The position numbers and the translations under genes were made by a program. This document shows, in pieces, positions 6,520 to 41,383 of a DNA stretch of 64,000 bases. Source of the DNA: Blasia pusilla (taxonomy: Eukaryota); contig CM114271.1 in NCBI GenBank assembly GCA_050084515.1, positions 26,288,001-26,352,000 on the forward strand, read 5' to 3'. The stretch's first letter is position 1. Every line of letters starts with the position of its first letter. The notes under the pieces are model-generated. The model made no database searches. It was not told where the DNA came from and was given only the letters and a program-made list of their open reading frames with translations.

Positions 6520-7010
6520 TGTCACGATTGTTATGATAGATCGGTGAGATCTAGCAGAGCGTCTGCACGAGTTGTGGATGATAGGCCTAGGAGGTCAAGG
6601 ATGACTTGTTGAGGCCCCGAGAAACCTGACAGAGTAGGTTTCCCCTTCGTTTCGGCTCATTTGCAGCCATATAGATAAACTTACTATTTCGGGTAAGTTT
6701 CCATATTTGGGAAAGTTGACTTTCCACTTTGGGAAGTGGCCCTTGACCCGCTACAGTAGGTCAAGATCCAAGGAGGTGACCTGCAAACATACGCTACCGT
6801 TGAGAGGGCTTGGGAGAGGGAAGGGGGTATACCTCATTCTCTTTTTGTTAAACCTCTTGGCATAAGGGAGCGGAGCTATGGTCCCTTGCTTTGTGAGTGT
6901 AACCCAAGTCTCTCATTAGGAGAGTGGGTTTGGTTTGACATGAGAGAGAGAGTGCACACCTTTGAGAGCTATGGTGTGAGATGGTGTAGAGAGACATTGG
7001 ATCTTACTTT
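6520..7010 (+). repeat. Terminal repeat A1 of copy 1 (~490 bp)
   Basis: Direct repeat of 16111-16624; homology stops after ggatcttacttt. Contains a TATA-like motif (catatagataaac) and short hairpins. Confidence 0.92.
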
Positions 7011-8552
7011 ACAAAGAGAGAATGAGAGAGTGAGAGAGCTTCATGGGGGAGCTTGCAAGTCACTCGCTGTTTTTTCAGGTTGGGGACTGCGTTCCCCCCT
7101 CAGAGGCTCATGGGAGTGCTCACCGGAGCAAGGGCAACTTTGATTGTTCTTTGCATTTGCCGATTTTCATGTGGAAGAGGGGCGCGCGGAAGTGCTGCCC
7201 AATTTCTGATAGGGATTGATTATGGGGGCGGGTTACCCCATGCCGGTGCTCTTGGGAGCACCATGTAGCTTGGTGATTTGTATTTTTATAGGTTTTATAT
7301 TTTTTTTGGGAGAAATCAATGCGGAAGCGCTGCCAAATTTTGTGTAGGAGAAAGAGACATTGGGCTTTACAACAGTCCGTGTCAATTTTTACTGGAATGT
7401 TCAATTTAAAATATTTTTTAACTTTGTCGTAAGTTATGAACGTTGTGCAATAAACAAGGAGCAATTTGGAGTTGCGAGCAAAAAGTGATGGTCAATCTTG
7501 CAAAATTGCCATTGTTATGCGTTTTTTAGGGTTAAGTTGTTCAAACCCTAAACTAGCCGCCATGCCGCCGGCGGTCGTCGCCATCATAGTCAACGCCAAC
7601 GGTCCACCCTTGATGGTCAACCGTCACCATCAATGTTCAACCATCAACGTCAATGGTCCACCGTCCGTTGTTCATCCTTTGGTTGCCATTGCCGCCGTTA
7701 CGGAGTGGAGGGCGTTTACACGACGTTCGTTGATTCTCTAACTTGCGTCGCCACCATATACTTTATTTTGGCCACCACCCTCATCAACCTGTGGTGGCAG
7801 ATGACCTCTGGTTATGGTGTTTCAGTTATGATTTCATGCTGCTATGTTGTGATTGGTAGCCACTCGACGACGATTGAGTGTCGTGTTGTGACGCCCGTAG
7901 CCGCAACGCTTCGCCAATTGCCGTGTTGTGCCGCTCGTGGCTGCACCGCACCATCTTGATCAAAGAGCACACCATCATTGCGGATCTGAGTGTGGGTTAA
8001 TTGTTGATTGAGGAGGGTATGCCGCCGAGTGCCGCATCCCACCATCGAGGGCCGTGCCGTTCGTAGTCGTTCCGTGTCGTCTGCAACGCCGCACCGTTCC
8101 GTTGGAACCGCACTATTTATCGAGGAGTTTTGAGCAGCGTCAATACGGGAGGAGTTGTCTCCATGGCCGAGTTGGGGTCGAGGTTTTTTGTTGTTGAGGA
8201 GGGACATCGACATGTGTTCAGGTTACCCATTCTGGTCCTTTACCATGCACGTGTGAGGGATTTTGGGATTTGGGTAGTTTATTTGGGGATATTGGGTGTG
8301 TGGATGGTGAGAGCATCATTAATTTATGTGGTTTAGGGGACATAGACCTATGTGGGATTTATGGAGTTGAGGGTATGTTGTCGATGAGATGATAGCCTTG
8401 TCGATTTGTCGGACACGCCACTTGTTGCCGCACGTTACACATCTCGGGGAGGGAGAGTGTAGATGGAGTGCCGCATGTTTGGGATGACTGATTGATGGAT
8501 TACTCACGAGGCGAGAGGGGCACAAGGGTCATCACGGCGTCCATTCGAGACT

Positions 8553-10033
8553 TTGAGAGGCGAGGTGCTGAACCTCGAGAGTAGCTCTAGAGATTTTACG
8601 CGGATTGGCGCGAGGTTCCGAGGGTCTCCACGTGAGGGACCACCTCAACCCCCTTATGTGTCATCATCACATGAGGGGGAGGATATAGAGGATTTTGTGA
8701 GCACACTGCCACATATTGCGAGTGCCACATATTGGGCGTACGAGATGGAAGACCGGGGTAGAGGACCGCGTAGGTTTTCAAGTGCAATAAGTACGATTGA
8801 GTTACACGATTTCATACCAGAGTTTAGGAGTTGGTGTGACTCCCAACGGGCCAAGAACTCTAGAGAGTTCAACCCATTTACAACATGGAACGGTATGTTC
8901 CACCATTTAGAGGGGGCACCCATGGACGATTACCATGAGTTCTCTCAGAGATATGCACGTGAGATCGAGGCGTGGAGGCTCTACTATGACCCACATTGTG
9001 TGTCATGGACGGAGCCATTCCCAGATGAGGAGGAGGAGTCAAGAGAGGCTACTTCCTCTTCCACAAGTGAGGTTTTAGGAGGGGTCACTCGCACGGGAGC
9101 AGTTGAACCGTGTCGTCGGGTTCGTCCTAGGTTCAACCATGTGGTTGATTTCTTTGGTGAGTTGAGGGCGAGCTACCAGGGGGTACGAACAGAGAATTTG
9201 CAGAGCATCCATGACTTCCAGAGGCTCCTGGCCGAGAGTTTGCGTGAGGCTTACACTTTCTAGCGCCGATTGATCAACGTCACTCAAGGTATGCAGAGGC
9301 TCGGGCTATCCAATCATGATACGCGATGTTGGACCGGACCCTGCGGACACGAGTGCGGGAGGGGGTGCTTCTTATGAACACCTCCCCTATGTTGAGAGAT
9401 GTTCTTAGGATCGCCGAGAACATTGAGCGCAACATGGCGGAGGAGAGCATAACCACCATGGGTTCTGGGCAAGAGAACTCGCGATTGATTGCACCACTTG
9501 TGCAGCAACGTCGAGTCCGAGATAGGCCGACTGTGGCACCACGAGCTAAGGGAGGATACCCGGAGGCCGTGCCATAGAGACCAGCGCCTTCATATGCGGC
9601 TTAGCAGCAGCCACCTACTATCACTTGTTGGTCATGTGGTGGAGCCATCATCAACACGATTGCACTCGTTAGGGTTATGGACGTGTGCCTCAACATGGAG
9701 GAGGAGATGGTGCTGCACCCGGAGGTTATCAGTGTGACTATTGTCAGAGGTATGGTCATACACATGCCAGGTGTTTCTGTTTACATCCTGAGTTACGTCC
9801 GGACCGAGGGCCAGAGACAGCACCAAAGCAAGTAGCCGGTCCGGGTGGGCCTTAAGATCGTGCACCAAGTGGTGTCGTTGGGGGACAAGGAGCTGGAGTT
9901 TCCCGACACGGTGGTGGAGCTACCCGTGGAGGAGGTAGAGTCCTACCACCTAGACGCGTCGAGGGAGATGCAAAACATGATGCTAGGATGGCTACTCAGA
10001 TACATTAGCTACAGGAGCAGATTGGCACTATAA
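8553..10033 (+). pseudogene. Gag region of copy 1 (capsid-like segment plus two zinc knuckles)
   Basis: ORFs 8553-9263 and 9326-9577 (SIHDFQR..ESLREAYT). CCHC knuckle GYQCDYCQRYGHTHARC at ~9722-9772. A second, upstream knuckle reads WACGGAYHKRNC in copy 2. Confidence 0.8.
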
Positions 10034-10619
10034 CATTGCGATTACCCGATGCCAGATCCGTGGCATCGACATCATATGGAGCAGCCAAAGATATGGAGGA
10101 TCCTGGTTGGATGTGCGGGGTTGCTTAGATGGAGGCAGCCGTAGTTGTGACGCGTGGAGCAGCCACAGAGTTGGATCCACAGTAAGGGAAAGCCAGGAAA
10201 CACACTAGGTTTCCTCAGTCTTTCACGTTGTCAGAGGCGATGAGAACCCCATCGATGGGTCCTGATCAGAGTTCCTGGAGTGTTGGTGATGTTGTTGGTG
10301 TGCAGGCACAAAGGGCGATGGGAGAAGCGAGTGCAACGACTCCTATTGTTGATGCTCAGGAGGGGCATGTGTCAAGCACATTGTTGGGGGCGGCCACCAT
10401 TGTGTACCGCTGTCCTTTATTTTCTGCTTCCGATGTTATGACGTTGGGGGGTAAGCCCGCCAAGGCTTATCGGCTGGCCACTACGCTATATGAGCATAGA
10501 GTTGGATTTCCTGCATAACGTTCAGAGGTGATTGCAGAGGAGGTGATGGACCTGCCCTTGGAGCGGATGCTTGGGCTGTCCACGTGCGATTCATGGTAGA
10601 TTGCAGTTGCTAGGATGGG

Positions 10620-11100
10620 GAGATGCCCGCTAGACCCGCAATAGAGCATGCCATGGCTTCCCCTGGTGTTGTGTTGTTGGATAACAAAGAAGAGGTCTTC
10701 CTATTGGTGAGTCTCGGAGGTAGAGCTTTTAGGCCGCAGCGCGTCTTGTTGGATTCAGGAGCGCAATCCTTGATGTTGGGGAAAGCGTCATTCAGAGGAT
10801 TGGGCTTGACAAGAGCCGATGTGGAGCGTTGTCCATTCCGGATACACACACCCTTGGGTTGAGCGAGTACCACATAGTATATCACCCGATGGGAGGTTGT
10901 GGTGAGGATTTTCTCGGGACATCCTACAGATGAGTCCGTGGTGCGAGCCAAGGCGATAGTGACTGATGTAGAGTCCTAGGACATCTTGGTTGGTGGAGTA
11001 GTGTTATACCTGATGGGGTTTTCCTTGGATTACTGGGAGGAGTCAGCGTCCTTCAAACCAAGATGGCAGTGAGGTGATGGGCGCCTTAGCTGATTACCTG
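10620..11100 (+). pseudogene. Retroviral-type aspartic protease of copy 1
   Basis: RVLLDSGAQSLMLG with DSG at 10752-10760; downstream DILVG flap-like motif at ~10980. Confidence 0.85.
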
Positions 11101-11459
11101 TTCGATTCACAAGTGCAGTGATCAAGCGACGGCCAGTAGAGGTTGCAACCTTAGCACCATTAAGCACTGCCATCACTTGGCCTAGTGAGGACATGTCCAT
11201 GCAGAGGATACGCCCGTTCTTGACATTTCTATGGAGAGGAGTGTTATGATAGTTGCATCATTCCGTGGAGAAGAGATGCCATTGTGAGGCTCGATCTGAG
11301 AAGCTTCGACGATTGGCAGAGGAGCACCTGCAGACCATATGGAGCGAGGCATTTGCACCATAGCATGATAGGTCTAAGAAACCCGAGGTAGTTGGGAGTG
11401 CTACAATGATACCCTTGGATACCACACCTATTGTGTGGTGTATATCGAAGAAGGGTGTT

Positions 11460-12400
11460 CGAGTGTTAGATCTCTTTGGAGGGAATAGCACCGGGTTAGC
11501 TGTTGTTTTGTAGACAAGAGTGCGAGTGCAGGAGTACGTGTATGTGGAGAGTGATGATGTTGTGAGGCGCGTCTCAATACAACATGTGGCACAATTACGC
11601 CTACGTTTTCTTGACTTATTGTTTGTGTCTGCGGTGTTGGGATACAAGAGTTCCCTACCAAAGGATATTTCGTTGGTAGGGGCGTAGGACTTAGAGCAGG
11701 TAGGGACCATTGATTTGGTCATTTTCGGTTGGCCATGTGAGGGCCAATTGAGTGTTGGACAAGGCAGCGGGTTGGTTGACACTCAGTCCAGGTTGTTTTG
11801 GGAGATGTCGAAAGATTTTACGGTAGTTGCAGGAGCACATGTCTCGTTCTCCAGCCTACATTATGGAGAATGTGCCGATCTTAGGAGACTCGAGGTCACG
11901 CATGGTGACGAGTGCTCATCTAGTGCGTGCCTAAATTGGCCGTGCAGTGTTCTTGGATGCAACGAGTGTAGATTCTAGAGCCCATCGCCCGTGTCTATGG
12001 TGGACCAACTTGGTGCCCCATGCGCTGTTACGAAGGGCGTATGCGAGAGTGGAGCGCCCCTCCCATTTGTTAATGGATTCCATTCTGAATCCAGGTCGTC
12101 GATCACAGGTAGTGAGGCACGATGATCGACCAATGTTGACTGTGGTTAACAGGGTAGGTAGGCGGGGCAGCCTTGCCCACGTTTGTGAGTTTTCCCGCTT
12201 CCTATACATACAAGGAGGTCGGTCTTGGCTTGGTTTGGGATGACCAGGTTCAACGGTTGATGGACCCCAATGCCAACAAGAGAGAGCGAGCGATGGGATT
12301 TCCCACAAGAGTGACAGCAGTACCTTCAGTGTCAAAGGCATCATGACGCCATGTCTTGGGTCATGCGATGGACCTGAACTGTTTGACATGGATCCTTAGC
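11460..12400 (+). pseudogene. DNMT3-like C5 cytosine DNA methyltransferase domain inside the retrotransposon polyprotein (copy 1)
   Basis: Motifs in canonical order: I RVLDLFGGNSTGL (11460); II YVYVESD; III PKDIS; IV GTIDLVIFGWPCEG (PC at 11733-11738); V SRLFWE; VI YIMENVP (ENV 11866-11874); VIII DATSVDSRAHRPCLWWTNL; IX RERAMGFP; X RHVLGHAMD. Contains stops and a frameshift. Confidence 0.93.
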
Positions 12401-12839
12401 TGTTGAGCAACGCCGTATGAGATCACGACAGATCACAATGGTTGCGTTAGTGAGCCCCATGCCTACCGAGACGGTGGAGGCAGTGGCTGGGGGCGAGACT
12501 CGAGGAGACCTACACACCAGGGGAGATTGGGAGAGACACCCTTGGACTTCTTGGGATGTTTTCCAGGTACGCCAGAAGTTGATAGCCACATCATCGAGCG
12601 TGGTTCAGGGCACTGCATGTGAAGGAGATCAGAGTTTGCAATTGGTTGTAGGAGAGTGGCCAGGTGTTGTTGTTCGAGACGGGGTTGCACCATAGCAACC
12701 ACCGATACACTACGGTGGACAGTCCTATCGTAGTCATCATGAAGACTTGGGAGCCAGATATGGTCCCTAAGTTAACAGGAGGAGAGCGGCGCTGAATACA
12801 TCAATTCCTCTTAATTTATAGGAGTTGCTTTGCGCTTAG

Positions 12840-14140
12840 CATGGAGGATCTGGGAACGTTGAAGGGATCGGGGATCCGCATTGAGTTGTGGAGTGATACG
12901 CCGATCTTTCTGACGACCCTACTTATATAGTGATATGGAGAGGGCTCTGATTCAGAGTAGGAGCCAAGACTTGGTCGGAGCTAAACTAGTGGAGATGTCG
13001 CATGGGGAGTATGCATCTGCCACTGTCATGCCCGCCAATAAGGATGTGCATGGCAACAGGACGGATAGGCGGATGTGTGGGGGTTACTGACCTATCAATT
13101 GGCAGACGAAGTCCAATAGGTATGCCATGCCCACCCTTGAGGAGATCTTTGATGCAATTGGTCATGCAAAGGTCTTCAGTTCATTGGATTTGCGAGTCGG
13201 ATACCATCAGCTGCCTATTAGATTGGAGGACAGGCATAAGTGGACATTTTGGGGCATCGATCCTCACGGGAAGGATTGTTTGTATGAATGGTGGTTCTTA
13301 CCCTTTGGGTTAAAGAACGCCCTGGCTGAGCTTCAGAGGGTCATGGATAGGATCTTGGCTGGTCTGGATTTTCCTAGGTATGATATTGATGACATTGTAG
13401 CCTTTAGCGCCACGGTTGAGGAGCATGAGCGACATCTAGAGGAGGTGTTTCGATGATTGCAATTACAAGGCAAGTGCAAGTTCTTCTACGACCAGATTGA
13501 GTATTTGGATCATACGATATACCCAAGGAGGCCTTGGTATCTCACACACTCCACGCCCTACAGATATGAGCCATGTTCGCGCATTCATGGGATTGGCGAA
13601 CTTCTATCTGCGGTACGTCAAGGGATTCAATTCGATTGCGCAGCCGCTAACCTTGCTGACGAAGGTGGATCACGAGTGGCACTAGGGGGATGAGCAAGAG
13701 TGAGCATTTCAATTGCTAAAGGAGAGGTTGACGTCCGCGCCCATCTTGAGGAGACCGATCAGGGGGCGTCCTTTTCAGTTGCACACAGATTGGAGCATGT
13801 TGGGGCTTGGAGCGGTGCTCGCCTAGCATGATGATGAGGGTAGAGAGTTCATGGTGGCTTACGCTAGCCGCTCGAACAATGTTGCAGAGGCAAAGTACAA
13901 CTCGTATGAGGGTGAGTGCTTGGCTACAGTGTGGGGTGTCGCGCATTTCAGGTGTTACTTATTCCACAACCCCTTTACCATCATCATTGATCATCAACTA
14001 CATAAGTGGTTGATGGAGTCCGAAAAATTTATAGGGAAGCTTGCGAGATGGGCTCTGTTGTTGTAGGAGTATGATTTTTAGGTGGTACATAGACTTAGGA
14101 CGCTCAACCAAGATGCAAATGGGTAGAGTCGTAATTCATG
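12840..14140 (+). pseudogene. Gypsy reverse transcriptase and RNase H of copy 1
   Basis: AKVFSSLDLRVGYHQ, LPFGLKNA, YDIDDIVAF (~13380); VRAFMGLANFY; RNase H FQLHTDWSMLGLGAVL, VAYASRS, YEGECLA, KLARWALLL. Confidence 0.95.
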
Positions 14141-14329
14141 CCCAAGTCAACGAGATGCAACTGGATTTTAATGGCATGGAGAGAATGATGAGGAGTCAGT
14201 GCCAGGATGGCATGCATCAACCTATTTAGGCATGTTGGCTATGGAGAGCCAGAGTGTGGAGACTTCGATGGCGAGGTCTTGCGGAGAGTCCTTGGATCCC
14301 GAGGCCAGTGAGGAGACGACAAGTGGCCG

Positions 14330-15600
14330 AGATATTCATGATGATGGAGAAGTGTTGGAGTACCTTCGTACTAGCAGCGTTGCGAGCACCGTGGATGCTA
14401 GAGAGCAGGATTGGATCCTACAGCGGGCCTTACGGTTCTGTTGGGAGGGGACACATGTTTTGAGGGTTTGGGAGGATGGTAGAGTATATGTAGTGCCACA
14501 TCCTTTGCATAGAGTACGACTTTTGCAGCATGCCTACGAGGAGTTGGGTCACTTTGGAATGAAGCGGACGTACAGCTTCCTCCAGATTCAGTATTGGTGG
14601 CGAGGCATGCATACTGACGTTCAGTAGTTTGTTGTTAGGTGCATGGTGTGTTATCGGGTCCGAGCATCATTCAATGCTCTGACTCCACAATTGAATCCAT
14701 TCCCAATGATGGGCTTAGGGTATAGACAAAGTTTGGATTTTGCATAACCTTTGCCTTTGACGGAGCGTCACAGTAGTTATGTGTTGGTGATGGTCAAGCA
14801 CTTCTCGAAGTGGATCAAGTTGGTTACATTGCTTGACAAAGCGAGTGAGGGAGTAGCTTATGCCTTCCTTGATAGAGTGAAGAGTCATTATGGTGCACCG
14901 TTTGAGCTGTTGACAGACCATGGTACCGAGTTTCGCGGTGAGTTCCAAGCCTTGTGTCATCAGGCGTTGATCGACCACCGCACGACTTTGGGAGATCATC
15001 CTGAGGCGGATGGATTAGCGGAGAGAGTTGTGCAGAAGATGAAGAGGGGTTTACGTAAGTATGGCTTGCAAAGAGGTTACCTAGGAGATTGGGACCTCTA
15101 GTTGCCGTGGTTGGCGATGGGATACAAATTCAGCAGGCAGGCATCCTTAGCATCTTTTTCACCGTACTTGCTACTTTATGGCCGAGAGACAGATTTACCT
15201 TCAGCCATTCGTCGAGATGCTGGTGAGGTGCTGGACCTTGATGACCCCGATGTATGGATGCGAGCATGTTCTCAGAGGGTTGAGTTATTTCGGAGAGAGA
15301 TGCCCATGGCGTTTGAGAACTTGGAAATTACGCAACATCGAGATATGTTGAGGTATGCCACTATTTGGGATGGTGGTTATTGACCAACTATCTGGAGGTT
15401 TCATCAGGGAGATTATGTCTACTTGTAGCAAACGGCAGTGATGATGTTGGATGTGACTGCATGGCGCACTATCTTGAGAGTGTGTGACGTTTTGCCATCC
15501 GATGTTCTCTTGTCGCAGGGACGTGATGGTATAGTATGGAAGGACCATGTGCGTAATTGTGCGCCATGTCATTTTCCTAACATTGATGGTATAGTAGATC
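14330..15600 (+). pseudogene. DDE integrase of copy 1
   Basis: HAYEELGHFG...YWWRGM (Zn-binding region), HFSKWI, LTDHGTEF, HPEADGLAERVVQ, SPYLLLYGR. Confidence 0.93.
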
Positions 15601-15624
15601 CGAGCTAAATACTAGTTTCTGCAG

Positions 15625-15790
15625 GCTTGCGTTATATGTTGTGTGGTTCTGCTCGTGGTGCCATCCCAAATAGTGGCTGACCTCCCACCACGATGCTAGT
15701 CTGTGATGGATGTTCGAGAGGCTGGCATATGGCATGTCTGACGCCACCACTCACTAGGGTTCCCCGGGGACGATGGATGTGTCCTTGATG
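15625..15790 (+). pseudogene. C-terminal PHD finger fused to the integrase (copy 1)
   Basis: YMLCGS...[32 protein letters not shown] matches the C4HC3 pattern; the first Cys is not intact in any copy and this copy has a short insertion. Confidence 0.88.
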
Positions 15791-15985
15791 TATATAGAGG
15801 AGATACTAGGTAGGTTTTGATTCGATATTTTTATGTGACACGGATGACAGGAATGCGACTAACGATGGGGCCACATGAGCACCACGTCTTTCTGCTCTTT
15901 GCGTCCTAGAGATGTATGTCGTGGTAGGTAGGGATAGATGGCTATTTGGAGTTAGAGGGACCTAACCACTAGCCAAGGGGGATTG

Positions 15986-16108
15986 GAGATATTTTGGTAC
16001 TTCTCGCCTCTATGTATGGAGGCCATGAGTTAGCATGGAATCGTGTGTGTTTGTGTGTGTGTTCGATTAGACGATGTATGTTGTGTAGCGATGTGTATGC
16101 GTACGACA
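15986..16108 (+). repeat. Repeat B1 of copy 1 (~120 bp)
   Basis: gagatattttggtacttctcgcctc...gcgtacgaca; direct repeat of 16630-16747. Confidence 0.92.
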
Positions 16109-16110
16109 TG

Positions 16111-16624
16111 TGTCACAACTATTAGGATAAATCGGTCGGATCTAGCAGAGTGTCTGCATGAGTAGTGGAGGACAGGCCCAAGAGGTCGAGGATGACTTGT
16201 TGATGCCTCGGGAAACCTGAGAGAGCATGTTTCCCCTTTGTTTCGGCTCATTTGGAGCCATATATATAAACTTACTATTTCGGGTAAGTTCCCATGTTTG
16301 AGATAGTTGACTTTACAATTTGGGAAGTGGCCCTTGACCCACTATAGTAGGTCAAGAGCCAAGGAGGTGACCTATGAACATAGGTTACCGTTGAGAGGTC
16401 TTGGGAGAGGGAAGGGGATATACCTCTAAGAGAGATAAAGCTTGAGAGCTCATTCTCTTTTTGTTGAACCTCTTGGCATAAGGAGGCGGAGTTATGGTCC
16501 CTTGCCTTGTGAGTGTAACCCAAGCCTCTCATTAGGAGAGTAGGTTTGGTTTGACATGAGAGAGAGTGCACACCTTTGAGAGCTATGGTGTGAGATGGTG
16601 TAGAGAGAGATTGGATCTTACTTT
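16111..16624 (+). repeat. Repeat A2 of copy 1
   Basis: Starts TGTCAC; colinear with 6520-7010 and carries an extra ~24 bp that A1 lacks. Confidence 0.92.
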
Positions 16625-16629
16625 AATTC

Positions 16630-16747
16630 GAGATATTTTGGTACTTCTCGCCTCTCTGTATGGATGCCATGAGTTAACATGGAATCGTGTGTGTTTGTGT
16701 TCGATGACAACGATGTATGTTGTGTAGCGATGTGTATGTGCACGATA
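16630..16747 (+). repeat. Repeat B2 of copy 1 (right terminus)
   Basis: Second copy of B, followed directly by the TSD ACCC. Confidence 0.9.
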
Positions 16748-18982: not shown

Positions 18983-20216
18983 TGTAACATTATAATTATC
19001 TCTTTGTATTGTACTTATCTTATATAGATATGATTCTTCTTTACATTTAGAATTAGTATCAAATAAACATCGACGGATCTTGACAAATAAGCATCGACAA
19101 ATCTTGAAAGATGGTAGTATTGAGGCGATAACTTATTTATAACATCGAACACATAAATTCATAATTATAAAGTCCTTGTAAACTATTTTTCGCTTGTGGA
19201 GAAGAAAACTAACAGAACTAGTGTTAAACCCTTCCCGAACAGGCCTATTAACATCCATGGATCACTATATAAGAACTTCAATGGACAATCCCATGTCCTC
19301 CCATACGTGAAAATAGGAAAAATCACAAGAGTTGGAGATTGCATGACCTAGTTTATGAATTCCTCCCCAAAGTGGTAAACTAGATAGCGACTAAATGAGT
19401 GCTTATCTACAAAGAGAATGGTCACGTGGTATGCGTTAAGGAAAGGAAAATTATGTACAATTTGTGCTCCATCCCTTCCCTACTTGACGGGCATCCTCTA
19501 CTCTCTTCAATAATGGGTTGTGGCGAGTTGCTCTTGCAAGAGGGGTAATCCACTCTCATTGGGAAACTAACAAGCCTAAAACCCATCCATTATCTATAGT
19601 ATGACTAAACTTCCCTAAGATGACAAATCTCTCATCTTCACACTTACCATACTCTATAAATCTCTAGAAGAATAGACCATAATCAAATTACTCTCCAAAG
19701 AGGGGTAATACACTCTCATTGAAAGAGCAAGCAGACCCAATACCATCCACGCAATAGTGATACAATAACTCAAGAAATGAAGTAGAAGGTGATGAACCCT
19801 TGAAGGTCTTTCCTCTTTGTATACTCATAAGAGATCCACAACAGTACAAAATAAGGCTAATGTTATCTTGTGCCATATGGCTTCCTCCCAAAGCTTAGTC
19901 AATCACATTTTGACACAAGTAGATAACCTCTTATCTCTTCCAAAATCTCCTCTTTTACTCACTTCATATATTTCAAAGTATCCCAACTACCCTAGCCACT
20001 AACCAACACTACTTTTTATTTTCTTTCATTAATGCACTAATCCCACTACTTTACTTTTATAGTCTCATGTTTAATTTATTATCTGTTTTCCTAAAGTTGG
20101 ACGTGCATAAAAGAAGCACCATAAAGAGCTTTAAACATGGAAATTTCTTTTTCCTAAGCTTATTTACTTAATATTAATAAAGCTCTCTCTAACACTTAAT
20201 GAGATAAGAGTTAACA
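18983..20216 (-). mobile_element. 3' LTR of a second Gypsy family
   Basis: On the minus strand it starts TGTTAAC and ends GTTACA, just downstream of an integrase relic. Core ~19110-20000 is homologous in inverted orientation to ~41520-42400. Confidence 0.65.
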
Positions 20217-20291
20217 TAGTGGGTCCCTTCAAACATGCACATTCTCAATATGTGCCAAAAATATTGAGACTTCTTGCTATTTTTCTCACAC

Positions 20292-21400
20292 TTATTTTGT
20301 ATGTGTCTGTAGACAGATTGAATTGAAATCAATAAATCCCTCACATCTACAAAAAATTTTGATTTCTTTTCCTACAATGGGCAGCTTGAGAATTGTGCCA
20401 TCTAGTTCACATAGTTTATAAGTGGTATTATCGAAAACAAAGACTACAACATATGGACCAAACCAATGACGTGCAAACCTCTTAATTGTAATAGGCTGGT
20501 TTTCAAGGTTTTTGCGGTGCACCAAAACCCAATCTAATTCTCTTATAGACTCCTTCCAAAGTCCATGAGTTTTGTCGAAGCGTTCATTATTTTTCAACAT
20601 TGCTTCCTTCATATTGACTTATGCTTCTGCGATATCTTCTTCACGCCGCTCTAGCTGTTGTATTCAAAGTGCCAAGAGCTCTTCCCTATCGAGCCTGCCC
20701 TCCGACGAAGAATCCATCCAAGTAGGAATATCTCCTTCTGTTGGTATTATTGGCATTTGACCTATAATCAACTCTATAAGCATGAAACATACACCGATGT
20801 TGTGAGTGGTTCTATTTGCCCAAAAAGAAAATGGAAGCAATATAGGATAATCAACATAATAGTCTCCATACGCTTTTACCAATGTTTGAATTATTGGAAG
20901 ATATCCCCTTGTGCTCTTGCCGTTTGCCTCTGGTTTCATGGATGTTATTAATCCTGGTTGGACTCCATACTTCTTGAAGAACTCTTATGCTTCCGTCATA
21001 TTCAACTCACTTCTATCTGCAAGGATTCTCCCGACACTCCGATGGCGAGCAACAATCGCCTCTAGAATAAAATGACATATAGGCTGTGTTGTTTAAGCTT
21101 GTAAAGCCTTCCCTTCTACAAAGTCGGTTAATTCTTGTCATGCTAGGACTAGGTAGTGCATTCTCCAAAGACCTAGTGGCAAAGCAACTATATCTATAAC
21201 CCACTGATGATGAATAGACAAAGGATACGTGGGTTTAAGTCCATATTTTATCTTTCTTTTTCTTTTCTTTATTTGACATTCAACACATGACCCAACAACA
21301 ATATCCTCTAGAATAAAACAACATATAGACTATGTTATTTTAGCTCATAAAGTCCTCCCTTCTACAAAGTTGGAAAACTCTTTCAGCTTTCATTGCAATC
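20292..21400 (-). pseudogene. Gypsy integrase relic (second family) with GPY/F motif
   Basis: PEANGKSTRG, WANRTTH, WFGPYVV...YKLCELDG. The segment at ~21300-21375 duplicates ~21056-21127. Confidence 0.8.
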
Positions 21401-27763: not shown

Positions 27764-28559
27764 CTTCATGCACTTTTAATACCACGAACGGCTTGCCCTC
27801 CCCCTTATACCCCATTAAATTTTTTTTTTGATTTTTTTGTAGTCGACAAACTATAAATAAAATGAATAAAAAATATCCTTGAATGAAATTTATCGATATA
27901 TGACACTATCTTGATTAATTTTACTGAAAGTTCTTGAAATTTTGGTCGCTATATAACTTGGTATGTACTTTCAAAACTTAAATTTATTTATGTCTTAGAA
28001 TGCCATATTTGCATTAAAAATAATAAATATGGAGATAATAAAAAAATTTTACTTATGAAAATGGAGGTTCCAATCGCCTCGTATGTTCATCTTGTATAGA
28101 TTTGTCATTGGGATGTAAATGCCACACAATATTTTTGGATTAAATATCTACAGTCATTGTCACAAGACATTAAATAGATGTACCCTTTAACTAAATCATT
28201 TGTATCATAAACATATTTCAAATCTTTGATTGGTCGTATCGGCCTAAACCAATTGAACACAACTCTACAAACACATCCTTCTTTATTTGGAGCCATTCTA
28301 TGTTCCAAATCAATAACTCCTCTACATCTACCCCACTTACTACTATACTTATTTTGAATTTATTGTACTCTTCCAATCCAAGGAACTAATCTTGTAAATG
28401 TGCTAGGATTTACTACAAATCTAGTTCTTCTTAGAGGTACATCTTCTTCAAATAATACTTTGCAATCCGCTCCCACATCCAATAAGCAATGAGGAATGCC
28501 ACAAGAAGAAGCTAGTGATCCTCTTACGTTAGTTTGATTATAATACACACTCTGTTTTT

Positions 28560-29535
28560 CCTCTCATCTTCTTCCTCAATCTTTCTTCTCCTCATTCTCA
28601 CATTTGTTTTCTTCCACAATGCCATAAATACCAAAACTTTGTCGAGAAATGTCCTTAGGCCTGATAAACTGAGGGGGACATTTTTCTCCACATCCCCTTC
28701 TAGAGGTTGAATTAAAAATGGAGAATGTCAAATGCGATCTTCCATTGTTTCCCTAATCTTGGACCTAACGTTGAAAGATCTAAACCGTTCACATTAATGT
28801 ATGAATTTGTAGGGACTAGCCCTTCAAGTTTGAGCTTTTTCCGACAGTATAATCTATTGTTGGACGAAGATCAAGGATGAAAACTAAGAAATACCCAATG
28901 CATCGACACTTCCACTCCTCCTCTTTATCTTTTTTCTCCTCATTCTCACCTTTTTTTTCTTCCACAATTCCATAAATATCAAAACTATGTCGGGAAATTT
29001 CCATAGGCCCGATAAACCGAGGGAGGGGGAATTCTCCACATGCCCTTCTAGAGGTTGAATAAAAAATGGAGAATGACAAATGTGGTGTTCCATTGTTTCC
29101 CTAATCATGGATCTTAACTTGAAAGATCTAAACCGTTCAAAATAATGTTTGAATCACTAGGGAGTAGCCCTTCAAGTTTGAGCTCAAACAGACAGTGCAA
29201 TATATTGTTGGACCAAGATCATGGATTAAAACTAAGAGATGCCAAGTGCATAAACACTTTCATTCCTCTTCTTCCTCTTTCTTCTCCTCTTTCTCAATTC
29301 TATTTTCTTCTACAATGCCATACATACCAAAACTTTGTTGAAAAATGTTCTTGGACCTGATAAACCAAGGGGAAAGAAATTTCTCCAATTATCTTTCTAG
29401 AGGTTGAATTAAAAATGGAGATTGACAAATGTGGTCTTCCATTGTTTCCTTAAGCTTAAGTTGAAAGATCTGCACAGTTCAAAATGATGCATGCATCACT
29501 AAGGACCAACCCTTAAAATTTTCGAGCTCTATCCA
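28560..29535. repeat. Diverged tandem repeat, period ~348 bp, ~2.7 copies
   Basis: cttccacaatgccataaatacc-like anchor at ~28611, ~28958, ~29307; tctagaggttgaat.aaaaatggaga occurs three times. Confidence 0.9.
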
Positions 29536-34029: not shown

Positions 34030-37000
34030 TCGGATATACCAGAGTTGAGGATGGTTTTTCGATGAGACGATAGATAAGTTGATTTGCCGCACCACGCGGC
34101 TTGTTGTTGCACAACACACGTCTTAGTGAGAGAGTGTAGATTGAGTGACGCCTGTTCAGTTTGAGTGATTGAGTGATTACTTGCGAGGTTGAGAGTGATT
34201 GTGTGAGAGGGGCATGAAGGTCATCACGGTATCCTTTCAGGACTTTGAGAGGCGAGGTTGTGGACCTAAGAGTAGCTCTAGAGGATTTACCCGGAGTGGT
34301 GCGAGGTTTTGAGAGTCTCCACATGAGAGACCACCTCGATCTCTGTATGTGTCATCTTCAGACGACGGGGAGAGTGTAGAGGAGTGCGTTTGTGATTTGC
34401 AACACATATTGAGTGGTCCTACCAGTTGGGCGTATGAAAAAGACGACCGCGTAGGTTTTCAGGTGTTATAGGCACTCTTGAGTAACACGACTTCATTGCA
34501 GCGTTTAGGAGTTGGTGTGACTCACAACGAGTTTGGACCTATAGAGAGTTCAACCCGTTTAGAGCATGTTCTTGCATTTGGAGGGGGCGCCCATGGATGA
34601 TTACCATGAGTTCTCTCACATATATGCCCAGGAGATCGAGGCATGACGACTCTAATATGAACCATACTATCTGTCATGGACAAAGCCATTCCTAGATGAG
34701 GATAAGTCAGGAGAGGCTACTTCCTCTTTCATCCATGACGTTTTATGAGGGATAACTTGCACTGGAGCAGTTGCACTGTCCAATCAAGTTTTTCCAAGGT
34801 TCAACCCTGTGGTTGAGTTATTTGGTGAGAACTTGCGGAGCATCCACGACTTCTAAAGGTGTCCGGAAGAAAGTTAGCTTGAGGCCTACACTCGCTTACA
34901 CCGGTTAATTAACATCACTCAGGTAGTGACAGAGTCCTAGACTATCCATAAATGGTACGTGATCCTGGACCGGACTCTACGAAGACCTCTCCGAGAGGGG
35001 ATGCTTCTTATGAATACCTCCCCTATGTTGAGAGATTTGTTTAGGACCGTTGACAACATTGAGCACAATATGGTAGAGGAGAGTGTAGCCACCATGAGTT
35101 ATGGGTGAGAGCAGCCATGAGTATCTGCACCACAAATGCAACAACGTGAATTCCAAGATAGGTCCGTGGATATTGGGCGGCCCTGCCATAGAGCTCAAGG
35201 AGGATACAGGGAGGCTGTGCCACAGAGACCTTCGCCCTCATATGCGGCTAAGTTTTTGCTGCCTACGATTATTTTTTGGGCATGTGGTGGAGCCTATCAC
35301 AAGCGTAATTGCACTCGTCAGGGTGATGGACGCGTGCCTCAACCTGGAGGAGGAGATGGTGCTACACTAGGAGATTATCAGTATGACTATTGTCAGAGGT
35401 ACTGTCACACATGCGCCAGGTGTTTCAACTTACACCCTGAGTTACGTCGAGACCGATGGCCAGAGAGGATACCAGAGCGAGTTGCCATCGAGATGGGCCT
35501 AGAGGTCGTGCACCATGTGGTCCCGTTGGGGGACAAGGAGGTGGAGTTGTCCGAGGGGGTGGTGTAATTGCCCATGGAGGAGGTAGAGTTAAACCGCTAA
35601 GACGCAACGAGGGGGACATCAGGCGTGAGGAAAGGATGGCTGCTCATATACAACAGCTAAAGTAGCAGATTACTGCTCTAGTATTGAGGTTACTAGGTGC
35701 CGAATCCGTGGCATCGACGTCTTATGGAGCAGCCGGAGATATGGAGGATCTTGGCAAGATGTGTGGGGTTGCCAAGATGGAGGCTTCCGCAGTTCTTACA
35801 TGTGGAGCAGCCGTAGAGTTTGGTCCACAGTGAGGGAAAGCCTGGAAAAAGACTTGGCTTCCTGAGTCCTTCACGTTGTTTGATGAGATGAGGACTCCAT
35901 CGATGGGTCCTGATCAAAGATCTCGCAGAGTTGGTGATGTTGTTGGTATGCATGTAGGGAGGGCAATAGGAGAAGGAGGTGCAACGACTCCTATTCCTGA
36001 TGCTCAAGAGGAGCATGTGTCGAACACGTTGATGGGGGTCGCCACGATGGTGTACTGTGCTCCTTTATTTTCTTCTTCCGATGTTATGACATTGGAAGGT
36101 ACGCCCACCAAACTTTTCCGGTTGGCCGCTATGCTATGTGAGCGTGGTGTTGGTATTCTTACGTCCCTCTCAAGGATGATTGGAAAGGAGGTGATGGACC
36201 TGCCCTTGGAGCGTATGCTCAGGTTGTTCGCGTCAAATTCATGGTGGGTTGCGTTTGCTAGGATGGCGGAGATGCCCGCTAGACCCACAATAGAGCATGC
36301 TATGGATTCTTCTTGTGTTGTATGGCTGGATAACCAGGGAGAGGTCTTCATGTTGGTGAGTCCAAGAGGTAGAGTTTTTAGACCGTAGGACGTCTTGTTG
36401 GATTTTCTTTTTAGAGCGCAACCCCTGATGTTGGGGAAAGCGACATTAAGAGGATTGGGCTTGTCGAGAGCTGATGTCGAGCGTTGTCCTTTCCTCATAC
36501 AGACATCCTTGGGTGGAGTGACTACCACATACTATATCACCCGACATGAGGTCGTGGTGAGGATTATCTCGAGACGTCCTACAAATGAGTCTATGGTGCA
36601 AGCCAAGGCGATAGTGACCGATGCCGAGTCCTTTGACGTCTTGGTTGATGAAGTAGTATTATACCGGATGGGGTTTTATGTGGATTATTGGGACGAGTCA
36701 ACATCCTACAGACAAGTATGGCAGTCAGGTGATGGGCGCCTTAGCCTATTGCCCCTTTCATTCATCCGTTGAGTGATCAAGCAATGGCCAGGAGAGATGG
36801 CGACCTTAGGAGCATTTAGCAGCGCAATCACTTGGCCTAGTGATTTGATTGAGGGATATGCCCTTATAGAGTACACTCATGTTCGTGACATTTCTATGGA
36901 GAGGAGTGTCATCGTAGCCGCATCATTCCACGGAGGAAAGGTGTTGCTTTGGGGCTCAACTGCACGAGCTTCGACGCTTAGCCGTTGAGCATGTCCAGAC

Positions 37001-37728
37001 CGCGTGGAGTGGGATGCTTGCACCAAAGCGGGACGGTTAGAGGAACCTGAGGTAGCTAGGAGTGCTACTATGACTCCTTTGGACACCACCCCGATTGTGT
37101 GGTGCATCCCACAGGAGAGTCTTTGCGTGCTAGATCTCTTTGGAGGGATTAACATTGGTTTAGCTGATGTTTTGCAAGCAGGAGTGCGCGTGCAAGAGTA
37201 CCTATACATGGAGATTGATGATATTGCAAGGCACACTTCACTTCACCATGTGGCTAAGTTATGGCTGTGATTTCCTTCCTTGTTGTTTGCGTCCGCCGTC
37301 TAGGGATACCAAAGTTCCCTACCGAGGGATATTTCCTTGTTGGGGGTGCTCGACTTGGAGTGGTTGGATAGGGACCATAGATTTGGTCATTGCAGGTAGG
37401 CTGTCTCAGGGCAAATTGAGTGTTGGATGAGGTAGCAGGTTAGCTAACACTCTATTTAGGTTGTTTCGGGAGAAGATCCAGATTTTGCGACGCTCGTAGG
37501 AGCACCAATCACGTTGATTAGGAGTGGCACTATGGGGGATAAGCATGAGAGAGCATTTTAGCTGCTCAAGGACCGATTGACATCCGCCCCCATAATGAGG
37601 AGACCAATCACGGGGTGTCCTTTCTAGTTGCATAGTGATTGGAGCATGTTGGGGCTTCGAGCCGTACTCACCCAACATGACGATGATGGTTGAGAGTTTG
37701 TGGTGGCTTGAGCTAATCTTTCAAACAA
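34030..37728 (+). mobile_element. DNMT-Gypsy copy 2, 5' part (UTR, gag, protease, N-half of DNMT, deletion, start of RNase H)
   Basis: Colinear with copies 1 and 3. DNMT LCVLDLFGGINIGL...YMEIDD...IDLVIAGRLSQG at ~37120-37505, then a jump at ~37515 to the RT end and RNase H. A1 is missing. Confidence 0.9.
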
Positions 37729-37849
37729 AATTTTCGTATAGTAAAATCATCCAGTGTGTAAACTCCTGTCTCTTTCAATATTAGATAGATTTTTATTAGT
37801 ATCAAGTAAAATAGCTCAAAAAAAAGGAAATTCCCATGTTTAAACCTCT

Positions 37850-38260
37850 TTATGGGTCCAGAAAGGAGTTAATAATTTTTGGGCATTTGCTTACAAGTCC
37901 ATTTTGCATGAAACTTTACTAGAGTTTAACATGCACCTTGGAGAACACGTGGCATAAATTCCAATTCAAAATGTGAAAGTTGGACAAGATGAAAAATAAA
38001 AAAAACCCAAACCATTTTGGTCTCATCGTTCGGGTCCAAAATGGACTTGCCACTTTTTGAGCTTGTGGTCCCAACTCCATTTTGCTTTAAACTTGCCAAG
38101 AGTGTTAGATGCACCTTGGAAACCATGTGGGCTAAATTTTAGCTCAAGATGGAAACGTTGGACAAGATGTCCGGTTAAAGACCATTTTTTTTCATTCAAG
38201 GTTATGTCCTTCGGGTCCAAAAGGTCATTTTAAACTTAATTTGGGATGAGACTTTGCCAA
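37850..38260. repeat. Diverged ~180-bp tandem repeat, ~2.2 copies
   Basis: gggtcca anchor at ~37854, ~38032, ~38213; atgcaccttgga and gttggacaagatg are repeated. Confidence 0.75.
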
Positions 38261-39106
38261 ACTGAAAGATTTTATTGGGGGACCATCTGCACTATTCTAT
38301 AGAATGCTAGAAGAGTTATTACATTACACTCTTGTAAGTAATTACACTCTCGCAATTAAATGTAAATGATATCCTACTCCCTAGAGTAAATTCATCCTTC
38401 CATAAAATTTAAACCAAATCTATTCATTCTCCATTAAAATTCAATTTCCCTTTCCATTACATATGAATCAACGCACCTCTGAATTTCTTTATCTATCATT
38501 TTCAAATTTATAGAGATTTAGTAAGATTTATATTCACCTATTGTAGTATTAAATAAAAATGAAATAACAAGTAATTTTGGTTTTCTATTCCATCCAAGTC
38601 TCTTTCAAATTCTACCCCATGCAATATTTATCAGAGGGATAAAATTCATACATCATTTATCTTTACAATTAAATTCAAACATATATTTTCCTTCATTAGT
38701 TTTGGGAAAAAAAATTCATCCCTTTTCCAATCTCCATCTTTCAATAAATAAAAGAAACTCGCTTAATTTTATAAGTTAGTAATTTTTTAGGAATCAGTAA
38801 TATAAAAAATAAATTTATATCAAACAAATCATTAAATTATGGTATCTTCCATCCTATCCAAGGATTTATAACCTAAGAGAAAAATTTAATCCATTTCATG
38901 AACTCACTTCATGGACAACATTGTTGATCGTCTCACATTCACAAGTTTCCTTAGTTGTATATTTTGAATTTTTTTATAAATGTCTTACAACAAATGAGGA
39001 GTAGCCCACAAAACATTGGGATTGAGAGGAATCTAATACTTGTGTACATAACAAAGATATAAATATCAATTCATTCTCTCTTATCTGATTCATCATCCGA
39101 TATATG

Positions 39107-40985
39107 TTACACCGGTGTCGACGTCTCACCATTTCTTCCTCCTCTTCCCCTAGCTCTAGTCACGCACGTCCCACCTCCATGAGGAACAATCCTTTCCAAC
39201 TCAACATCACCTTCACCATCATCAGTTTCTTGTGTTTGTTGTGTCGAAAACATCTCCCACTCTCTCTCGAAGAATCCAAAGAGTTCCTCCTGCATTCGAC
39301 GAGGAAAGTAGTATGTTCGAGGATATCCGCTTTCAGTCTTTTGAGGAATATCTTGCCATAAGAAAGGTGGCAAGATCAATATGAGTCTCCTCAAAACAAG
39401 CTCATCCATCAATGGATTTTGATAATGGTTAAGCACAAGTTGTCAAGTTGTGTTGAGGGCGTCTCAAACTTCTTGTGATTTCAACCCTCAAGCACAGAAG
39501 AAGTTTTCCGCCTCTCGATTTTTGGAGATCAATGGCTTTTCCGTGGATGAGCTCTACTTGATCGTACATGTTAATCCACCAGACCAACCACGCTCGCATT
39601 GCGGGATCAATCCTCTGTTGGCGACGGATTTTCGCTTGAATCACCATGTCTATGTTCACTTCGGGGTTATAGTTCGATCGAAAGCTACGATATCCCAAAT
39701 TGGAAGTGAAAATTTCTTGCTCTTGGGTTAATTTATGATAAGTGGATGGTGCATTGCCATCAGGAGTGCGGAAAGATATGCCGAAAAGGTGATAGAGTCT
39801 TCTTGACCAAGCTTGTCTACAAGTTGGACAATTGTGAGATAGTAGCTTGGCCTTTTGAAGACAATATGGATGCCAATAACAAGCTTTACATGTGCCTATC
39901 ACGTAGCAACCTTCTGCATCAATGGGGTTGAAGCATATCGTGTATTTGGGCCAGTGTTTTGGCGTGAGGGTCCCTCCTTCACATACTGTGATTGCCTTCA
40001 TCCAATCCGAAAGATCTTGCACTGTTTCGGATTAAGAGGCATCGGTGCCAACATCATAGAGGCATAGTTCGCAGCGTTTGAATCTATGATATTGTCCCAT
40101 GTTGCGTGTAGAGCAGGAGGCCACAACTCCTCGATAGGTTGGAATAAGATTATATCAACCTCCTTCATGAAACGACCCTCAAGTAGGATTGTCTCAAGGG
40201 TGAATTCTCCCACGTTACCTCTTGCTCTCCATCGCAATAATTCATCCATCTCTTGTTGTCGTCTTGCCGTGATGTTCTCATATGCTCTCCTCCACTGCTC
40301 TTTGTGGTCAACCATTACAACTCTTTGCCTTTTATGGAGGTCATCTATGGAGAAAGATTCATTCAAATGCCTCTACATCTCTTTCTTCAATCTCATGTGC
40401 TCCTCATATAGTTGTTCATACTTCCCCTTCAAAACTTGAATCCTGCGGCCAAATCAAAATTGAGTTGGGAATTTGTCATTAAACTCTCCAACTGTGATGA
40501 ATGAGACATTACCTCGCTATTATCCGGAGCACTCTCCCCACAAAAGGTTTGGAGAGGAGCATTGCTATGTATAGTGCAATACATAGCAATGCTCTCCCCG
40601 AAATCATCAAAGCTTGTACAATGACCTACACAGAGGTCATTCAAACCATCTTGTCTATCCTCCGCCCCCATGTGTACTCGCTCTTCATCTCCACTCTCGT
40701 CTTGTATATACTCTTCAGCATGACTATTTCTTCTTTGACCATCCAAGGAAGATAGTATGGCTCTAAGGCTCCTTGACAATCCACCTTGCTGATAATGGCG
40801 TGACGACGCTCGTGGTGATGAAGCTTCCACTCTTGCTCGTTTAAAGTGTTACCGTGGATTTCAACAATCTTCTTCTCTTGGCTCTTATCTCTTTGAATTC
40901 GTGAAGATTTCTCGTCCACATCGCCATATTGGATATGCAGGCCTGACGTAGCCCATGTGCGGGTCCGCGAGCCCCTACCCTCCAC
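39107..40985 (-). pseudogene. Intronless, frameshifted coiled-coil plus RING-finger protein
   Basis: Consecutive overlapping minus-strand ORFs. Charged helical part YEQLYEEHMRLKKE..EQWRRAYE; RING-like YTIC-x15-CKACYWHPYC-x10-CPTC in ORF 39429-40022; acidic tail. Confidence 0.65.
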
Positions 40986-41383
40986 CCCCCCTTGCGGGCC
41001 CGCTCTACATCCTGCGCGGGGGCTTTATGGCCTACATACGCGTCCACGATGCCCACCCCCTGGGTCTGTGAGCCCTCCCTCGTCCATATGTGGGCCTGCA
41101 AGGCCCCGCCCCTACACCCGCATATGAGCCCATGAGCCCGCATGCAGGCCTGTCGTAGGCCGCGTGCGGCCCGTGAGCCTGAGTGCCCCCGCCTCCCCCC
41201 CCATGGGCCCGCCGTTCCGGTGAACCCCGCGGGGATACGTGGCGGCCTCGGAGTGGCTGGGCCAAGTTCAAATTGGCCCCAACTTCCTCCCCTTCCCCCT
41301 TTTTTCCCTTTGGAGTAGAATCCATAAGGGAAGGGGCCCATAAGAGGCCCCAAATATTTACATATGGGGGGAGTTAAAGAGTA

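Follow-up and report, generated by a model that had tools for sequence, protein, structure and literature searches.

Three dead copies of a Ty3/Gypsy retrotransposon, whose Pol polyprotein carries a DNMT3-like cytosine-5 methyltransferase (C5-methylase) domain, were found in a 64,000-nucleotide stretch of Blasia pusilla DNA (contig CM114271.1, positions 26,288,001 to 26,352,000; hereafter the window, with coordinates counted from its first base). The family is a member of the Gypsy-DNMT3 lineage of streptophytes, which was first documented in Klebsormidium nitens and is a kind of element that is already known: KnitGypsy-Dnmt3 was reported from that species, together with DNMT-bearing DIRS elements and LINEs (long interspersed nuclear elements) in Symbiodinium (de Mendoza et al. 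2018, Nat Commun 9:1341). Taken as a whole, it is likely that the window holds three dead members of this lineage, that their methylase was under selection in the past, and that it would have methylated the complementary DNA (cDNA) of the element or its target site. Cytosine methylation is the main route by which plants silence transposons, and a transposon with its own de novo methylase is therefore a paradox.

The background DNA of the window is AT-rich (27–37% G+C), with three stretches of approximately 50% G+C. Self-BLAST identified these three stretches as copies of one long terminal repeat (LTR) retrotransposon, and their gene content is that of Ty3/Gypsy elements. An end-to-end alignment of copies 1 and 3 showed 78% identity over 8583 bases, and copies 1 and 2 share 75% identity over 3536 bases, which places the mutual identity of the three at 75–78%. 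All three are pseudogenes and long dead, as indicated by stops and frame changes within the methylase domain and by LTR pairs that are only 83–85% identical. The domain has accumulated six stops and two frame changes in copy 1, seven stops and four frame changes in copy 3, and three stops and one frame change, in addition to a truncation, in copy 2. The rest of Pol is equally broken; for example, the RNase H-integrase stretch of copy 1 contains 13 stops.

A DNMT3-like methylase domain within Pol

A C5-methylase domain is present in all three copies. A first-pass annotation made from the DNA letters had placed C5-methylase motifs in canonical order between the protease and the reverse transcriptase (RT), and both the translations and the profile matches described below agreed with this order and place. 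In copies 1 and 3, motifs I, IV (PC), VI (ENV), VIII, IX, and X follow each other linearly. The translations of copy 1 contain motif I (DLFGG..GL), motif IV (GWPCEG), motif VI (ENV), motif VIII (AHRP.LWWTNL, which resembles that of DNMT3), motif IX (ERAMGFP), and motif X. All of these recur in copy 3, where motif IV reads GWPCQG, and the catalytic PC and ENV are therefore retained in both copies, as had been claimed. In copy 2, only motif I is intact; motif IV reads GRLSQG, with the PC lost, and the sequence ends shortly afterward.

The entire window, translated in six frames, was searched with a profile hidden Markov model (HMM) that represents 12 intact relatives (alignment A3). Matches were obtained at three places only, each of them colinear. 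The domain of copy 1 (11379–12406, plus strand) lies in three frames, with pieces at 11379–11807 (HMM 28–167, E 3e-40), 11812–12165 (169–286, 4e-39), and 12167–12406 (288–367, 1e-29). Copy 2 retains an N-terminal half (37058–37529, plus strand; motifs I–IV) that is ended by a deletion and is matched at 37058–37369 (HMM 30–133, E 8.5e-27) and 37365–37529 (131–185, 7.5e-4). In copy 3 the domain is broken into five frame pieces (51103–52189, minus strand), with HMM matches at 52189–52010, 52013–51294 (HMM 91–329, E 1e-63), 51754–51602, and 51297–51103. The 12 intact relatives have 26 invariant columns in common, of which 24 are conserved in copy 3 and 19 in copy 1 (PC and ENV included); copy 2 retains six of the eight within its span.

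The methylase adjoins the protease upstream and the RT downstream. Because the copies align end to end, its position is the same in all of them, which bears out the earlier view that the domain is part of the family. Copy 1 is colinear with an intact relative, P0239, a single open reading frame (ORF) of 2352 amino acids that contains a CCHC zinc knuckle, protease, methylase, RT, RNase H, and integrase. In copy 1, one frame (10713–11813) is common to the protease and the N-terminal portion of the methylase, and the C-terminal part of the methylase shares one frame with the RT (12170–13528). This implies that the frame changes of copy 1 lie inside or after the domain and not at its borders, and that the domain is in frame with the protease and, at its other end, with the RT. 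The complete Pol order of the window family is protease, DNMT3-like methylase, RT, RNase H, integrase, and PHD finger.

The solved structures nearest to the window methylase, by sequence profile as well as by fold, are DNMT3A/3B/3C. A profile of the 12 intact relatives gave 57 matches among all PDB sequences (E ≤ 0.01), the first 29 of which are DNMT3A/3B/3C chains (E 3e-27 to 1e-19). Two chains named "DNA methyltransferase" (9e-13 and 1e-11), DRM2 (2e-11), M.HhaI (2e-10), and DNMT2 (approximately 1e-6) come next, and no DNMT1-named row occurs among the 57. The alignment with DNMT3A consists of three colinear stretches, one of which runs through motif VIII and the target-recognition part (HMM 120–295 to residues 59–226 of the DNMT3 chain). 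DRM2 chains match only HMM 49–177, through their C-terminal residues 226–351; a match of the first half only, by the C-terminal part, is what is expected for a permuted enzyme. The circularly permuted order of DRM is not found in the window, where the motif order is linear, in agreement with the first-pass annotation. A profile made from the window's own N-terminal pieces also retrieved mostly DNMT3 rows from the PDB (29 of 36 matches, best E 4e-5). The AlphaFold model of relative P0031 (predicted local distance difference test score, pLDDT, 88.7) was compared with solved structures by Foldseek, and every listed rank of the top 50 was DNMT3A/B/C, with template modeling (TM) scores of 0.75–0.79 when normalized by the catalytic-domain chains and approximately 20–25% identity. 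The DNMT3-like wording that had been noticed in the motifs is reflected in both the profile ranking, where the next class follows only at 9e-13, and the fold.

Compared with the catalytic domain of animal DNMT3A/3B/3C, the window methylase has the same linear motif order, and these enzymes are its best match by profile (3e-27) and by fold. On the other hand, motif IV of the window family is PCQ, as in most C5-methylases, whereas the aligned DNMT3A has PCN. DNMT3 proteins carry additional reader domains, PWWP and ADD in animals and a domain of unknown function in land plants (MBE 2025, msaf176). For readers of the DNMT3 type (PWWP, ADD, etc.), Pfam scans of copies 1 and 3, in which three reading frames each were used and stops were read as X, detected no domains other than those of retroelements and a PHD finger, which lies at the distal end of Pol. 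Unlike its animal counterparts, the window methylase therefore lacks PWWP and ADD and is part of a retrotransposon polyprotein.

Purifying selection maintained the methylase as long as the family was active. Codon changes were counted in an alignment of copies 1 and 3 that was read in the frames of copy 1. The ratio of nonsynonymous to synonymous change (Ka/Ks) was 0.27 in the methylase (321 codons), with differences at codon positions 1/2/3 of 0.19/0.16/0.35. The corresponding ratios were 0.35 in the RT, 0.39 in the RNase H-integrase stretch, 0.43 in the putative gag, 0.60 in the protease plus linker, and 0.87 in the methylase-RT linker. Shifted-frame reads of the same stretches, which served as a control, gave 0.80–1.25, and it is this difference from the 0.27 of the methylase that argues for selection on the domain during the active phase. 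Of the refuting outcomes named in the first-pass annotation, neither a ratio near 1 nor a domain out of frame with protease and RT was observed. In the N-terminal half, where all three copies could be counted, divergence was lowest at second positions in every one of the three pairs and highest at third positions in two of them.

Several observations weigh against the overall interpretation of the elements given above. The PF00145 model (gathering cut-off 22 bits) gave the N-terminal piece of copy 1 only 16.5 bits, did not match its other two pieces, and had no match at E ≤ 0.01 in whole-frame reads of this copy. A PDB search with the middle piece of copy 1 retrieved no methylase, only two chance matches (glutathione synthetase, E 1.5). 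Membership in the DNMT3 clade would rest on the ranking against solved structures and on the published Klebsormidium tree, as the tree made here holds transposon-borne domains only and no DNMT1, CMT, DNMT3, DRM, or bacterial references. Pairwise Ka/Ks values blend the selected phase with neutral decay after insertion. In addition, the KnitGypsy-Dnmt3 domain showed no de novo methylation in yeast, a result that its authors called inconclusive, and the legend of their figure 4c gives a DIRS-like repeat layout for the Klebsormidium elements (Nat Commun 9:1341), which differs from the plain LTR pairs of the window.

Copy 3 scored 23.8 bits with PF00145, above the cut-off, for the motif IV part only, and its long single-frame read gave 47 PDB matches at E ≤ 10, all of them C5-methylases (best E 0.015, motif IV only). 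Intact relatives score 21–50 bits with PF00145, and one of them, P0099, falls below the cut-off at 21.4 bits. The signal was weak when general libraries were applied to single decayed pieces and became decisive with the HMM of relatives. As to selection, ratios that include neutral decay after insertion imply that selection during the active phase was stronger than they show.

The difference between copies 1 and 3 is also greatest in the methylase region (11012–12511), at 23–24.5% per 500 bases against 12–21% elsewhere, and the third-codon-position divergence of the methylase (0.35) exceeds that of the noncoding leader (0.20). Recombination between sub-lineages or a local mutation bias may account for this. 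The sense strands of copies 1 and 3 show a moderate depletion of CpG (observed/expected 0.65–0.81), with CpA at 1.34–1.42 and TpG at 1.08–1.18 in coding and leader parts alike, and G exceeds C approximately 1.45-fold. Between these copies, 235 CpG sites differ as TpG or CpA and 187 are conserved. Such strand-asymmetric CpG products may fit deamination of the minus strand or plain base composition.

Relatives, domain orders, and the PHD finger

To the window's own N-terminal pieces (alignment A2) we fitted a profile, which was searched exhaustively against 1.84 billion representative proteins. At E ≤ 1e-3 it matched 711 proteins, of which 180 reached E ≤ 1e-10 and five E ≤ 1e-30. A word-indexed search with the N-terminal piece of copy 1 had returned none of the longer proteins at E ≤ 0.001 among 1707 candidates; as the exhaustive search did find relatives, this empty result was a failure of sensitivity. 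Searches with the intact relative P0008 yielded 58 proteins of 382–1217 residues and 97 of 1218–3475 residues. The majority of relatives are unnamed metagenome proteins. Among the named ones, Marchantia polymorpha is represented by at least 12 clusters, one of which has 18 members, and others come from Calypogeia fissa, Sphagnum jensenii, Closterium species, and Klebsormidium nitens, as well as from the chlorophytes Scenedesmus, Haematococcus lacustris, Monoraphidium neglectum, and Cymbomonas tetramitiformis.

Two domain orders were distinguished: the methylase stands before the RT in the first and between RNase H and integrase in the second. Pfam assigned the first order, among selected relatives, to Marchantia P0176 and P0194, Klebsormidium P0305, and P0239, P0244, and P0183; Closterium P0064, which has a protease followed by the methylase and no RT on the protein, fits this order as well. 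The second order was found by Pfam in P0045 and Cymbomonas P0214, and P0084 has it as judged from where the domain lies in the protein. Of 176 proteins whose methylase domain is near-complete, the first order applies to 17 and the second to 78, and the remaining 81 have no RT and are not assignable. The window has the first order, and second-order queries map onto it noncolinearly.

A tree was made by a quick IQ-TREE search without an outgroup, from 91 rows: the three window copies (with X at breaks) and 88 of the 309 proteins with a domain match, 221 being left out. The 88 comprise all named proteins, all first-order proteins, the closest partial ones, and random sets of 15 second-order and 20 unassigned proteins. 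The window copies form one clade (Shimodaira-Hasegawa-like approximate likelihood ratio test, SH-aLRT, 97) inside a 20-row clade (SH-aLRT 99) with 10 Marchantia rows, Sphagnum, Calypogeia, and five rows without a name; all named rows of this clade are bryophytes. The 20-row clade lies within a side of 56 rows that also holds Closterium and Klebsormidium and no second-order row. The other side (35 rows) contains the chlorophyte names, the second-order rows, and the first-order P0313 on a very long branch. In this sample, therefore, the two domain orders follow the split between streptophytes and chlorophytes. Ten rows, copy 2 among them, fill less than half of the columns, which makes their exact places unsure.

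Branches among the 10 Marchantia polymorpha rows are mostly 0.005–0.07 long (one is 0.10), and one Marchantia protein keeps all 26 invariant columns. Judged by their sequences, the Marchantia copies appear to be young and intact. The K. nitens protein KFL_009030040 (P0305), which contains methylase, RT, RNase H, and integrase and matches P0008 with E 4.8e-43, is presumably one of the published Klebsormidium elements.

Three relatives have unusual features. P0167, a metagenome-bin protein labeled "Candidatus Obscuribacterales," falls inside the streptophyte clade and comes from a 2.4-kb contig, and it is for these two reasons probably a misbinned eukaryotic fragment. P0054 (1417 amino acids) has, in addition to the methylase, a Dam-type adenine methylase domain (PF05869, 45.9 bits), which recalls the dual-methylase "EpiLTRs" of a 2026 preprint (10.64898/2026.05.21.726589). 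The second-order P0084 contains a G-patch domain between methylase and integrase; PF01585 is also listed for P0198 and P0255.

Both full copies of the window family have a PHD finger (PF00628) after the integrase, at 15681–15791 (plus strand, 37.2 bits) in copy 1 and at 47872–48000 (minus strand, 29.9 bits; coordinates computed from matched residues) in copy 3. According to the precomputed Pfam column, 56 of the 97 long relatives (1218–3475 residues) contain PF00628. The finger of copy 1 is most similar in the PDB to that of KAT6A (E 2.5e-16), with further matches to fingers of CHD4, KDM5, PHF12, DPF2/3, ATXR5, PHF21A, AIRE, and UHRF1, the majority of which we take to be readers of the unmethylated H3 tail (H3K4). 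No Chromo match was found by Pfam at E ≤ 0.01 in either full copy.

From these observations we tentatively propose, at close to even confidence, that Gypsy-DNMT3 elements, rather than being peculiar to algae, are an old lineage extending through green plants into bryophytes, with two domain orders, a regular pairing of methylase and PHD finger that equips the element with a writer as well as a reader, and young-looking copies in Marchantia.

Structure of the copies and other features of the window

Copy 1 (plus strand) is bounded by a 5′ LTR at 6520–7011, which starts with TG, and a 3′ LTR at 16111–16625; the two are colinear over their full length and 85.5% identical over 517 columns. No target-site duplications could be recognized at copy 1 at the present level of decay. 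An upstream ORF remnant at 8496–9263 (plus strand), with an open frame of 255 amino acids, has no Pfam family; it is probably gag, a name given from its position alone. The aspartic protease (10713–11000, plus strand) has its DSG motif in the ORF at 10614–10862 and belongs to a stretch (10713–11813) that aligns to residues 766–1134 of P0239, whose Pfam protease covers residues 765–860. Downstream of the methylase on the plus strand, the RT (12929–13528; RVT_1, 44.1 bits) aligns to P0239 residues 1459–1659 (E 1e-51), and RNase H plus integrase (13542–15611) align to residues 1672–2336 (E 4e-170). Pfam scores in this part were 97.6 bits for RT_RNaseH, 47 bits for Integrase_H2C2, and 30.2 bits for rve, the last below its cut-off.

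Copy 2 is on the plus strand and is interrupted by a nested insertion at approximately 37733–42680. Its 5′ part (34030–37732) corresponds in self-BLAST to copy 1 in two blocks (8364–11838 versus 34042–37505 and 13665–13879 versus 37513–37728) and has an internal deletion equivalent to copy 1 positions 11838–13665. Its 3′ part (42681–44808; 14283–16700 versus 42685–44808 in self-BLAST) consists of an integrase remnant, which aligns to the integrase of P0239, and an LTR.

Copy 3 is on the minus strand, with its 5′ LTR at 56610–57099 and its 3′ LTR at 47104–47573 (83.3% identical over 490 columns). Its RT, RNase H, and integrase (48013–50685, minus strand) are colinear with P0239 and scored 77.1 bits for RVT_1, 71.2 bits for RT_RNaseH_2, and 35.4 bits for rve. 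In self-BLAST, each full copy (1 and 3) shows only one colinear LTR pair.

Other retroelement remnants occupy 19111–20984, 37733–42680, and 45118–47080. The first contains integrase-like open frames at 20295–20984 (minus strand), and 19111–20015 is 78% identical over 913 columns to part of the insertion nested in copy 2 (41507–42399). An RT-like piece at 46593–47069 matches P0239 weakly. A tandem or local direct repeat of approximately 350 bases, with copies 78–80% identical, was found at 28558–29534. Outside the elements, no open frame of at least 100 amino acids in the window resembled a host gene.

Possible roles of the methylase and comparison with known systems

In active elements, the methylase would have been made within Gag-Pol and would have entered the virus-like particle, as proposed by de Mendoza et al. 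(2018), where it might act at CG sites of the new cDNA, or on DNA of the integration site. A new copy would then bear marks like those of host heterochromatin from its arrival, and the PHD finger of the integrase might tether integration to histone H3 tails, in the manner of the chromodomain in chromoviruses. The idea of packaging and cDNA methylation is a hypothesis of that study (Nat Commun 9:1341). That self-methylation of cDNA was the main role is a possibility that we consider less likely than not. As the window copies are dead, any such function applies to their ancestors only.

The main rival to cDNA methylation is action at the target site: once the PHD-bearing integrase has docked, the methylase would modify the host chromatin of the integration site or its surroundings and would spread or seed methylation, whereby the insertion would land in, or create, silent chromatin that tolerates it. 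PHD finger and methylase occur together in the window and in 56 of the 97 long relatives, second-order elements have the methylase directly before the integrase, and an effect on insertion-site chromatin was raised in the discussion of the Klebsormidium study (Nat Commun 9:1341). However, the window methylase adjoins protease and RT rather than integrase, and present evidence does not separate cDNA from target DNA as the substrate; as the principal role, we regard this as somewhat unlikely. Alternatively, the methylase may be a self-limiting module that silences new copies at once, thereby reducing harm to the host and allowing persistence at low copy number. The authors of the same study named this possibility (Nat Commun 9:1341), and our tree shows a lineage that has persisted across green plants and broadly follows the host groups. 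A stretch of 64 kb with three copies is not suggestive of tight restraint, however, and self-limitation appears unlikely.

Other explanations concern the identity of the domain. It could be a C5-methylase of bacterial or viral origin with no more than a resemblance to DNMT3, given that our phylogeny has no reference families, that P0167 carries a bacterial metagenome-bin label, and that eukaryotic DNMTs are thought to derive from bacterial transfers (MBE 2025, msaf176). Against this, DNMT3 is at least 14 orders of magnitude ahead of any other solved methylase, the alignment spans the target-recognition part, and P0167 lies inside the streptophyte clade and is probably misbinned; a descent other than from DNMT3 is thus very improbable. 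Methylation of RNA, either the genomic RNA of the element or its tRNA primer, in the manner of DNMT2, has a precedent in the suggestion made for LINE-borne methylases (Nat Commun 9:1341). With DNMT2 chains at approximately 1e-6 against 3e-27 for DNMT3, we give this extremely little weight. Two further readings, an assembly chimera and the capture of a host gene fragment on a single occasion, were refuted: the domain occurs at the same place in three copies that are 22–25% diverged, the architecture is common to hundreds of relatives, and the codon-position asymmetry reflects selection within the family.

The window alone adds little, because its copies are dead; it shows that the lineage probably reached a bryophyte genome and was selected there. 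The wider pattern of a bryophyte clade with young-looking Marchantia copies, a PHD pairing, and two orders may outweigh the window itself. The first-pass annotation had suggested that such elements were undescribed in land plants, and this was upheld only in part. The kind is known, both from the Klebsormidium order and from the 2026 preprint, which cites "streptophytes (Gypsy-DNMT3)" (10.64898/2026.05.21.726589), and public databases already hold such proteins from Marchantia polymorpha, Calypogeia fissa, and Sphagnum jensenii. What stands is that a literature search, subscription journals and supplements aside, found no paper on such elements in land plants and none on the pairing of PHD finger and methylase in them. 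The main text of Nat Commun 9:1341 does not contain the words Marchantia, Physcomitrella, Sphagnum, PHD, or chromodomain, the preprint does not use the terms Marchantia, land plant, or bryophyte, and methyltransferase and PHD are both absent from the 2019 survey by Neumann et al. of LTR retrotransposons in plants. If the pattern is true and unreported, the role of transposon-borne DNMT3 would become testable in a genetically tractable land plant, where intact natural Marchantia copies could be used to examine cDNA self-methylation and PHD-guided integration.

Assignment to the streptophyte Gypsy-DNMT3 lineage follows from an LTR-flanked Ty3/Gypsy Pol with a methylase in the Pol frame and from a domain order and homology like those of Klebsormidium. 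The window family and KnitGypsy-Dnmt3 are both Gypsy LTR elements with a nonpermuted DNMT3-like domain in Pol that was under purifying selection, and the Klebsormidium copies were placed in a divergent clade related to Dnmt3 (de Mendoza et al. 2018, Nat Commun 9:1341). The family also shares its domain order and its side of the tree with K. nitens P0305. In contrast to KnitGypsy-Dnmt3 as published, it has plain LTRs, a PHD finger after the integrase, and dead copies, and it falls into a separate, well-supported clade with bryophyte proteins.

The chlorophyte Gypsy elements (Scenedesmus "pol," Haematococcus, and Cymbomonas) have a homologous methylase and an integrase plus PHD backbone; window positions 14304–15794 align to P0245 with E 6e-113. 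Their order, however, is RT, RNase H, methylase, integrase, and PHD finger, and they lie on the opposite side of the tree. SymbioDIRS-Dnmt3 of Symbiodinium resembles the window family in having a DNMT3-like domain in a retrotransposon Pol, and CG methylation by these DIRS domains was shown in yeast (Nat Commun 9:1341). Unlike the window family, these are dinoflagellate DIRS elements with a tyrosine recombinase, and their methylase was acquired independently. Chromoviruses likewise bear a chromatin-reader module at the C-terminal end of the integrase, which is a chromodomain in their case and a PHD finger in the window family.

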